Positions 14,900 through 17,139 of a stretch of 64,000 bases of DNA are shown piece after piece. The position numbers and the translations under genes are program-made. Under the pieces are notes generated by a model, which was not told the origin of the DNA, searched no databases, and was given only the letters and a program-made list of their open reading frames with translations. The DNA is taken from assembly GCF_050920415.1 (NCBI RefSeq), contig NZ_CP169309.1; one strand, given 5' to 3'. Every line of letters starts with the position of its first letter. The stretch's first letter is position 1. The DNA is from Escherichia coli (GTDB taxonomy: Bacteria; Pseudomonadota; Gammaproteobacteria; Enterobacterales; Enterobacteriaceae).

Positions 14900-15581
14900 G
14901 TGAGAATTATAACAGCATTGCTGATGTCATTTTTTATTTTACCTGTTCATGCGGGTGTGGTCATCTATGGTACGCGTATTATCTATCCAGAAAAAAACAG
15001 AGAAGTTCTCGTACAGTTAATGAATCAAAGCAAAAATGCCTCTTTGATTCAGGCATGGATCGATGATGGAAACACAACTATCGCGCCAGAAAAAATTCAG
15101 GTCCCATTTATTCTCACTCCGCCAGTAAGTCGTGTAGCAGGAGGTTCTGGCCAACAACTAAAAATAAAAAATGCCAAACAATTTACCTCACAATAAAGAA
15201 AGTTTATTTTATCTAAATGTTATAGACATCCCTCCAAACAACCCACAAAATGCAGGAAAGAACAAAATTAAACTTGCATTACAAAACCGTATAAAGTTAT
15301 TTTGGCGTCCCGAAGGCGTAGCGCCGGTAGATAAAAAAAGCCTGTCTCAATTAAATATCAAAAAGAAAGATAATGCCATCTCAATAAACAATGAAACAGC
15401 GAACTGGATAACAGTTACAACTATCAAAGCCCAAAATGTGAAAGTTAATAATGAAAGTATATTACTACCTCCATTTTCTAATAACGACATTACATTAAAA
15501 AATAACAACGCCTCAGAGTATGAACTAACGGTAGTTGATGATTACGGGAATAATATCAATAGTAAAATCGCTGCAAAATAA
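14900..15581 (+). pseudogene. PapD-like periplasmic fimbrial chaperone, frameshifted
   Basis: Two overlapping ORFs (14900-15196 and 15171-15581) whose products join into a typical chaperone (GVVIYGTRIIYPEKNREV...QAWIDDG... then KESLFYLNVIDIPP); the frame breaks near the A-rich tract at 15160-15196. Confidence 0.65.
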
Positions 15582-15593
15582 CAGGTAAAAGTC

Positions 15594-17139
15594 ATGTTAA
15601 GAACGACACGATGGGTCGCTGCAATTATTATTTTGTATTCTTTTCCAGGTTATGCTGAAGAAACTTTTGATACACACTTTATGATCGGCGGCATGAGAGG
15701 AGAAAAAGTTTCTGAATATCATTTAGATAATAAACAACCGCTTCCAGGAAACTACGAACTTGATGTTTATGTAAACCACCAGTGGCGTGGAAAACAAGAT
15801 ATCATGATCCCAGAGTCACCAGCCAAACCATGTCTGCCTGAGGAGCTGTTCACCAAACTGGGGGTGAAGACCGATAAGATCAATACAGAAGATAATTGTA
15901 TTTCACTGGATGAAGCAGTTCATGGTGGTCAATATCAGTGAACACCGACTAAATTTAACGATCCCACAGGCGTATATCATTGAACTTGAAAGAGGCTACG
16001 TTCCCCCAGAAAGTTGGGATCGCGGCATTGATGCTTTTTATACCTCCTATAATTTAAGTCAGTATCGCTCTTATGACAGCAATAATAACAGTAATACAGC
16101 CAGTTATGGCCGATTTAACAGCGGATTAAATTTATTTAGTTGGCAGATACACTCTGATGCCAGCTATAGCAAACCTGATGATATGAGAGGCACATGACAA
16201 AGTAATACTCTTTACCTGGAACATGGCTGGTCGCAAATATTAAGCACAATTCAGATAGGAGAAAATTATACATCCTCACTCATATTCGACTCTCTGCGAT
16301 TTAGCGGAATACGCTTATTTCGCGATATGCAAATGTTACCTGATTCCATGCAGAGCTTTACACCCTTAGTACAAGGTATTGCGCAAAGTAATGCATTGAT
16401 AACGGTTTCGCAAAATGGCTACATCATTTACCAAAAAGAGGTTCCCCCGGGACCATTTACTATCGCAGATTTGCAACTTTCGGGCAGCGGCTCTGATCTC
16501 GATGTCAGCATAAAAGAAGCAGATGGTAGTGTTCGTTCCTTTTTGGTGCCCTACTCTTCCGTGCCCAACATGCTGCAACCAGGTGTTTCAAATTTCGATT
16601 TTATCGCCGGACGCAGTAAGATATATGGTGTAAAGAATCAGGAGGACTTTCTCGAGGCAAATTATATATATGGCCTCAACAATCTTTTGACACTTTATGG
16701 CGGTACGATTTTATCCGATAACTATAATGCTATAACCCTGGGAAATGGTTGGAATACACCGCTGGGTGCCATCTCTTTTGACGCTACCCGATCGAGTAGT
16801 AAGTTAAATAATGATATAACACACGAAGGTACGAGCTATCAGGTTGCCTATAATAAATATCTAGTGCAAACGGCTACTCGCTTTAGCGTGGCCGCCTGGC
16901 GTTATGCTTCGCAGGATTACAGGACATTCAGCGACCATCTTTACGAAAATGATAAACACAATCATCATAGTGAATATGATGATTTTTATGATATTGGCAG
17001 AAAAAATAGCCTTTCTGCCAATATTATGCAACCTTTATCCACCGGCATAAAAATTGCTCTCAACGATGAACAGAACTTATTTTGTACCATTACTTTTAAA
17101 AACGTTATCGATGAAAATAAAACATATATATGTCAGTAA
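15594..17139 (+). pseudogene. fimbrial usher remnant (fragmented and truncated)
   Basis: Three ORF fragments in different frames (15594-15941, 15910-16197, 16327-17139) with usher-like N-terminal and middle segments; total about 515 aa against roughly 850 aa for intact ushers, so the C-terminal half is missing. Confidence 0.65.

Follow-up and report, generated by a model that had tools for sequence, protein, structure and literature searches.

Among 449 chromosomal chaperone-usher operons in 36 Escherichia genomes, 79 are not intact (PMC3559732). One of the types described is the operon typed as Yeh-like (gamma-4), whose usher in O157:H7 is Z0022/ECs0022 (Wurpel et al. 2013, PMC3559732, Table S2). 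The modules that flank nhaAR (hokC, sulfatase, fimbrial and type III effector) have been characterized as low in guanine and cytosine (GC), 'highly volatile' and 'fragmented or conserved' (Lescat et al. 2014, PMC4182557), and strain M863, a member of Escherichia clade I, was among the strains compared there. The stretch of DNA analysed here, called the window, is 64,000 nucleotides (nt) of an Escherichia coli chromosome (contig NZ_CP169309.1), running from carB to deoA and spanning the conventional origin of numbering. Four of its accessory genes are broken: the chaperone and usher genes of a Yeh-like fimbrial operon, an OmpK/Tsx-family outer membrane channel gene, and the recombinase gene of an IS621 element. 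In all probability these are inherited lesions and mark the decay of dispensable accessory genes.

The fimbrial operon of the window has the position of the Yeh-like operon, between rpsT/espX1 and nhaR, and its gene order of subunit, PapD-type chaperone, usher and adhesin. The synteny rpsT-espX1-operon-nhaR-nhaA is common to the window, to the intact operon of strain 19KM1831 (L002) and to the O157:H7 records. The window copy has 93% DNA identity to the intact 19KM1831 copy, which has 97.4% identity to the O157:H7 genomes, and the gamma-4 placement of the usher would follow from PMC3559732 by way of its high identity to the O157:H7 allele. Unlike the described operon, the window copy is a divergent allele, found with at least 95% identity in just 22 of 5,426 complete genomes, with 298 codons missing from the usher gene, a frameshift and a stop in what is left of it, and a frameshift in the chaperone gene. 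Judged from its sequence, the operon is a remnant of the Yeh-like type and not a functional member of it. Remnants are common: some part of the operon is found in 4,222 of the 5,426 complete genomes, but no more than 1,194 still have 80% or more of it. Most often the 3' 49% alone has been kept, and K-12 derivatives have 138 nt left.

All 61 coding genes annotated by the Prokaryotic Genome Annotation Pipeline (PGAP) in NZ_CP169399.1, the chromosome of strain MFDS1022581, were mapped to the window and translated. Of these, 57 are intact. The remaining four are the genes named above, in each of which the reading frame is broken when compared with an intact orthologue from the same locus, and the same four are flagged as pseudogenes in the annotation of NZ_CP169399.1. 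The lesions are confined to accessory genes: 4 of 13 accessory genes are broken and none of 48 core genes (Fisher p = 0.0014, by gene count). By coding length, eight independent events that all lie within 10.6 kb of accessory coding sequence give p ~1.5e-6. Translation is uninterrupted in all 48 core genes, including ileS, dnaK, thrA and slt, with carB only partly covered by the window (2129 of 3219 nt). In the core coding sequences there are 32 homopolymer runs of 6 nt or more, seven of them of 7 nt or more, and no run is broken; apart from the C9 of the OmpK-like gene, no run in the entire window reaches 9 nt. Each of the eight insertion or deletion (indel) lesions in the window is a loss, and of the nine lesions in total three (an 11-nt deletion, a TGA stop and an 894-nt deletion) are not of the homopolymer kind. 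In the housekeeping genes such mutations are eliminated by purifying selection, which is why these genes are intact.

The fimbrial lesions were mapped against the intact operon of 19KM1831, in which the subunit gene has 534 nt, the chaperone gene 684 nt, the usher gene 2451 nt and the adhesin gene 960 nt, all with the expected Pfam domains. In the chaperone gene, the intact sequence AAGAAAAA has become AAAAAA at 15166-15171, and the frame is split into two open reading frames (ORFs), 14900-15196 (98 amino acids, aa) and 15171-15581 (136 aa). The intact homologue has both PapD_N (E 3.7e-41) and PapD_C, and the two window fragments align to its residues 1-90 and 96-227 with 95-99% identity. The usher gene has an 11-nt deletion between ATATCAGTG direct repeats (15932-15940), a nonsense change of TGG to TGA (16195-16197), and an in-frame deletion of 894 nt with a TCC microhomology at its junction (17038-17040). 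The last removes approximately residues 490-787 of 816, about 298 residues of the barrel and the C-terminal domain. The intact usher homologue is an 816-aa protein with PapC_N, Usher and PapC_C domains. No complete usher with these three domains is present in the window, where the residues kept are 1-115, 117-489 (with one stop) and 783-816.

MFDS1022581 is also the nearest relative of the window, with 99.98% identity and only six single nucleotide polymorphisms (SNP) and two single-base indels across 64 kb. Both indels, one in the G run of the OmpK-like gene and the other at 35746 in IS621, lie inside genes that were already dead (p ~0.004), as neutral decay predicts. The window and MFDS1022581 are distinct strains, because some third-party assemblies have the alleles of the one and some those of the other: GCA_000194575.2 groups with the window, and SRR12406318 with MFDS1022581. 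Truncated proteins identical to those of the window are assigned by their source records to E. coli M863 and 1.2741. The lineage of the window is M863-like, within Escherichia clade I.

Public contigs (NCBI, ENA and Logan) contain the exact truncated products of the operon many times over, with the 98-aa chaperone fragment on 48 contigs and the 115-aa N-terminal usher fragment on 58; the exact 177-aa subunit protein is on 108. The distribution of the lesions was compared among 15 related loci from independent projects, and it is nested. The 894-nt deletion and the loss of one G from the chaperone gene are common to all members of the allele clade in which the operon is covered, RMDEC465 and 2013C-4282 among them. 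Of these, only 2013C-4282 lacks the 11-nt deletion, and the TGA stop and the second chaperone loss (A7>A6) are found in the window's own group only. Strain 2013C-4282 has private lesions of its own, A7>A6 at 14991 and an added T at 16057. The recurrence on 48-58 contigs together with the nested distribution shows that the fimbrial lesions are inherited mutations and not sequencing errors, and the nesting also gives the order in which they occurred.

On this order, an ancestor first lost 894 nt of the usher gene, by a microhomology-mediated deletion, and one G of the chaperone gene. The usher was then past repair, and the operon probably drifted without selection. The 11-nt deletion followed, by slippage between the direct repeats, then the loss of another A from the new A7 run in the chaperone gene, and then the TGG>TGA stop. 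The OmpK/Tsx-like gene appears to be at an earlier stage of the same process, with one G lost from G10 and a second G lost in MFDS1022581, as does the IS621 recombinase gene, with one or two single-base deletions.

The OmpK/Tsx-like gene is interrupted at a run of nine G (C9 on the + strand) at 23764-23772, which causes a -1 frameshift relative to the in-frame length of ten. At this site the intact 762-nt alleles have TGGGGCTTTTTTAAA or TGGGGGTTTTTTAAA, the window has G9T and MFDS1022581 has G8T, and G10T is in frame (W-G-G-G-K). By exact-sequence look-up, 55 contigs or more (72 index blocks) have the G9 product, 6-11 the G10 product and 2 the G8 product; the same look-ups found the G7 and G11 products on no contigs. 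Over 20 kb, the G9 and G8 strains and two G10 strains (L009 and L012) are 0-5 SNP apart. The polarity of the SNP makes L009 and L012 the sister branch to all of the G9 and G8 strains, and so a single G10>G9 contraction and a single G9>G8 contraction suffice. No reversion of the run from OFF to ON was seen by SNP polarity, a weak negative given the small sample. A group of strains about 2% distant (group B) is uniformly G10, in the seven loci shown. The G run is evidently a hot spot of mutation, and an expansion back to G10 would put the gene in frame again; the G9 length is stable over dozens of isolates.

The OmpK-like allele is a recombinant mosaic (window 23763-23912), in which gene positions 312-416 are of the B2/S88 type and the others resemble RMDEC465. 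Where this patch ends, GGGGGTTTTTT has given way to the G run (G10T in frame), which amounts to five adjacent T>G changes with no change of length and is real, being on many contigs. The derivation from an ancestral GGGGGTTTTTT by five adjacent T>G changes raised the suspicion that G9 was an artefact, which was rejected on the strength of the NCBI, ENA and Logan contigs with G9 and of the further contigs with the in-frame form. In other E. coli lineages the same gene is broken by the loss of one T from the neighbouring T6 run ('...EWGFLNRIL'). The products of this loss (P0008, P0009 and P0015) are on 80, 73 and 4 contigs, and the G/T run of the gene is a recurrent site of inactivation across the species.

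The IS621 element, of the IS110 family, differs from an intact IS621 at the same site in GCA_036681285.1 by its two 1-nt deletions and by nothing else, with zero SNP over 3,981 nt. The intact ORF encodes 326 aa, and the Pfam domains DEDD_Tnp_IS110 and Transposase_20 are found on the 250-aa and 326-aa IS621 products. Four copies of IS621 were examined and have common flanks (...TTATCAGGCCT / CTACG...), with an empty site that is a palindrome like a repetitive extragenic palindromic (REP) sequence. IS621 prefers REP sequences.

The first of the two deletions (G4>G3, at 35097) is shared by the window and MFDS1022581 only. In MFDS1022581, at least three copies of IS621 have G3, including those at secF-tsx and gyrB-yidB, and the copy at avtA-ysaA is intact (L022, L023, L024, L036). 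A blanket basecalling error at G4 was rejected, since the avtA-ysaA copy reads G4 and is annotated by PGAP as intact. Spread of a defective IS621 by transposition was rejected for the secF-tsx and yaaA-yaaX copies, whose insertion sites pre-exist in relatives. Relatives have intact, zero-SNP copies at two of the sites where the MFDS1022581 copies carry G3. This pattern suggests that gene conversion spreading G3 among the copies is likelier than a blanket error of basecalling.

The second deletion, the loss of a C at 35746, adjoins an A6 run (35740-35746) but is not inside it. Only the window has it: an exact 80-nt match was found in none of the 5,426 complete genomes. In 1,674 matching E. coli records the best copy has the undeleted CC (98.8% identity, 81-nt span), and none is an exact match to the window version. 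A truncated 43-aa IS621 product is on 123 public contigs; the same peptide results when the A6 run loses one A, and frameshifts probably recur at this run in IS621.

A preliminary description of this DNA, made from the letters alone, had listed frameshifts in the same four genes and uninterrupted core genes. Its account of the core genes is upheld by the 48 translations, and it was right to place a frameshift in the A-rich tract of the chaperone gene, where 2 nt are gone, and another at the G9 run of the Tsx-like gene. The usher gene, which it credited with multiple frameshifts, is indeed broken, but by one frameshift, one stop and one in-frame deletion. Its two sites in the IS recombinase are both present in the sequence as differences from the intact gene; the one it put in the A6 tract lies beside it.

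That the frame breaks are sequencing or consensus errors, such as homopolymer miscalls in long reads, in genes that are really intact is very improbable. Four of the nine lesions do touch short or long runs (A6, G9, G3, and CC next to A6). The window and MFDS1022581 differ at the G run (G9 vs G8) and at 35746, the change at 35746 is matched in none of the complete genomes, and G4>G3 is known from two strains. However, the five fimbrial lesions and G9 recur in many independent assemblies, including M863, 1.2741, AP025751.1, several Logan assemblies of Sequence Read Archive (SRA) runs, and drafts of the 2011 era. Independent assemblies of the lineage contradict an artefact for seven of the nine lesions; 35746 and, in part, G3 may be one. 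Three lesions are beyond what homopolymer error can produce, all 32 of the longer runs in core genes are unbroken, and MFDS1022581 reads G4 correctly in one of its IS621 copies. The independent assemblies, the nesting and the three lesions of other kinds bear out the view of the preliminary description that genuine mutations of accessory genes were likelier than systematic homopolymer error. The comparison with closely related genomes that it proposed has now been run, with the fimbrial lesions and G9 recurring, G3 present in MFDS1022581 and 35746 unmatched; its caution about individual homopolymer sites was justified for that one site, which is the sole lesion still needing confirmation at the level of reads. 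For the IS621 recombinase there is also the notion of a programmed frameshift or a normal organisation in two ORFs. A6-type motifs are used for programmed frameshifting in other IS families, one of the breaks is beside an A6 run, and the 43-aa product is widespread on public contigs. Against this, intact IS621 copies have a single 326-aa ORF, the best-matching copies in the E. coli records all have the undeleted CC, and a relative with zero SNP has an intact recombinase gene at the same site, so the notion has next to no probability.

A different challenge to decay is that the homopolymer lesions are reversible phase-variation switches of surface proteins, acting by slipped-strand mispairing as in contingency loci. 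Homopolymer-tract contingency loci are found in Haemophilus, Neisseria and Campylobacter; E. coli is generally regarded as being without them. As in those loci, the OmpK-like gene has a long G run in the coding sequence of a surface protein, with in-frame and out-of-frame lengths among near-identical strains (G10, G9 and G8). The adhesin gene, which also encodes a surface-exposed protein, has G7 in the window and private lengths of G6 in RMDEC465 and G8 in group B, each of which shifts the frame; at this site 19KM1831, with its intact operon, lacks a run (GTCGGAAGTCG). Both genes therefore have what phase variation is recognized by, a long homopolymer within the coding sequence that occurs in frame and out of frame among close relatives. 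The fimbrial operon, however, cannot revert, given its stop codon and its 11-nt and 894-nt deletions; the 894-nt loss is irreversible, and the operon is thus decayed and not switching. In the OmpK-like gene, in contrast to the known contingency loci, no reversion was observed, contractions alone are needed to relate the G10 strains to their G9 sisters, and the tract is limited to one small lineage, with a recent origin from GGGGGTTTTTT. A fast switch would look mixed, whereas G9 is stable on its many contigs and group B is G10 at all seven loci. Of the two processes offered in the preliminary description, decay or switching, decay is retained; switching is excluded for the fimbrial operon and may be possible for the G tract. 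It is improbable that switching accounts for the homopolymer lesions, and there is little likelihood that the G8/G9/G10 run of the OmpK-like gene, perhaps with the G6/G7/G8 run of the adhesin gene, is a working slipped-strand ON/OFF switch in this Escherichia clade I lineage. If it were, it would be a homopolymer contingency locus in E. coli, recently created by a GGGGGTTTTTT to G10 conversion.

Positive selection for the losses is unlikely, though it has more to be said for it. Shedding fimbriae and a Tsx-family channel, a possible receptor for phage or colicin, could be advantageous, the OmpK-like gene has been broken independently in other lineages at the T6 run, and the Yeh-like operon has been truncated by different routes in most E. 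coli. But relaxed selection acting on mutational hot spots would lead one to expect repeated losses just as much, and dN/dS (the ratio of non-synonymous to synonymous substitution rates) on the surviving genes is uninformative. The use of dN/dS to detect relaxed selection was likewise dropped, as the counts were too small and confounded by recombination. We infer that the losses were neutral, under relaxed selection, rather than favoured. Several points weigh against neutral decay of dispensable genes as the full account. Neutral decay is indistinguishable from selected loss of surface structures. The clade-level changes in the fimbrial subunit gene are five non-synonymous and one synonymous, which are suggestive of relaxed selection but tiny counts, and the adhesin gene has a dN/dS of 0.16, from small counts and with signs of recombination; this value is probably due to imported recombinant sequence. 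The G9 and G8 lengths in the two long assemblies are lengths in assembled sequence, and the missing C at 35746, for which no other genome has a counterpart, may be due to an error of assembly.

The coordinates of the broken genes and of other features of the window are collected below.

Table. Lesioned genes, neighbouring genes and RNA features of the window
Feature	Position	Strand	Remarks
ES003 sRNA	3343-3395		Rfam gathering-threshold hit
EspX1-like pentapeptide-repeat effector gene	12600..14072	+	Intact, 490 aa; first module of AT-rich island; GC 30-32%
Fimbrial major subunit gene	14316..14849	+	Intact, 177 aa; Pfam Fimbrial on 19KM1831 homologue
PapD-type chaperone pseudogene	14900..15581	+	682 nt vs intact 684 nt; 2 nt lost
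Fimbrial usher pseudogene	15594..17139	+	Three lesions; natural stop kept at 17137-17139
Putative tip adhesin / fimbrial family gene	17152..18111	+	Intact, 319 aa; G7 run 17397-17403
OmpK/Tsx-family outer-membrane channel pseudogene	23418..24178	-	761 nt vs intact 762 nt; Pfam Channel_Tsx
sok	24644-24796		Rfam gathering-threshold hit; beside mokC/hokC
tpke11	26181-26258		Rfam gathering-threshold hit
IS621 (IS110 family)	34751..36026	-	1276 nt vs intact 1278 nt; in REP sequence between yaaA and yaaX
IS621 recombinase gene	34856-35834	-	Two 1-nt deletions: 35097 (G4>G3), 35746 (CC>C)
Thr operon leader	41314-41433		Rfam gathering-threshold hit

The Rfam scan of the window gave the four RNA hits of the table only, none of them in the lesioned genes. 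The homologue of the EspX1-like gene in 19KM1831 is named 'type III secretion system effector EspX1' by PGAP. The window gene has a C8 run (14019-14026) encoding PPP, which is C7 with an altered C-terminal tail in SRR12406318 (L018), making this the third G/C run that is variable among near-identical strains. Downstream of the operon, nhaR (18149-19048) has 27 synonymous and no non-synonymous differences between the window and 2013C-4282, with a dS of 0.15, compared to 0.008 in the nearby fimbrial subunit gene. This stretch, nhaR with nhaA (19114-20280), is a recombination tract such as PMC4182557 describes for nhaAR. A 420-aa protein encoded at 20516-21781 on the - strand has, according to PGAP, an IS1/IS1595-family N-terminal zinc-binding domain and had no Pfam hit. 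It is intact in the window, and in group B assemblies its homologue is split into ORFs of 201 aa and 179 aa.

From its sequence, the strain is predicted to be unable to make Yeh-like fimbriae or the OmpK-like channel. Beyond that, the lesions have little import other than for quality control: the assembly is trustworthy in the window, the frame breaks being biological. Annotators of this lineage should keep the four genes flagged as pseudogenes and not 'repair' them. The operon is also a clean example, resolved to single bases, of the decay that sets in when an accessory operon loses one essential gene, with the G/C runs as the next places to break.

Compared to the modules described around nhaAR, the window has the same layout of five modules, the same low GC (30-41% in the accessory island between rpsT and nhaR, with flanks of about 50%), and the same 'fragmented or conserved' state. 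The published account (PMC4182557) is at the level of presence or absence of modules, and the order of the lesions at the level of bases is extra detail and not a new phenomenon. The phenomenon itself is textbook pseudogene decay and is already known, annotated in RefSeq for a near-identical strain and described for the locus at module level. Nothing material sets these genes apart from bacterial pseudogenes in general: the genes are dispensable, a first disabling hit has been followed by small deletions, slippage in runs and stops, the lesions are nested among relatives, and the changes are biased toward deletion.

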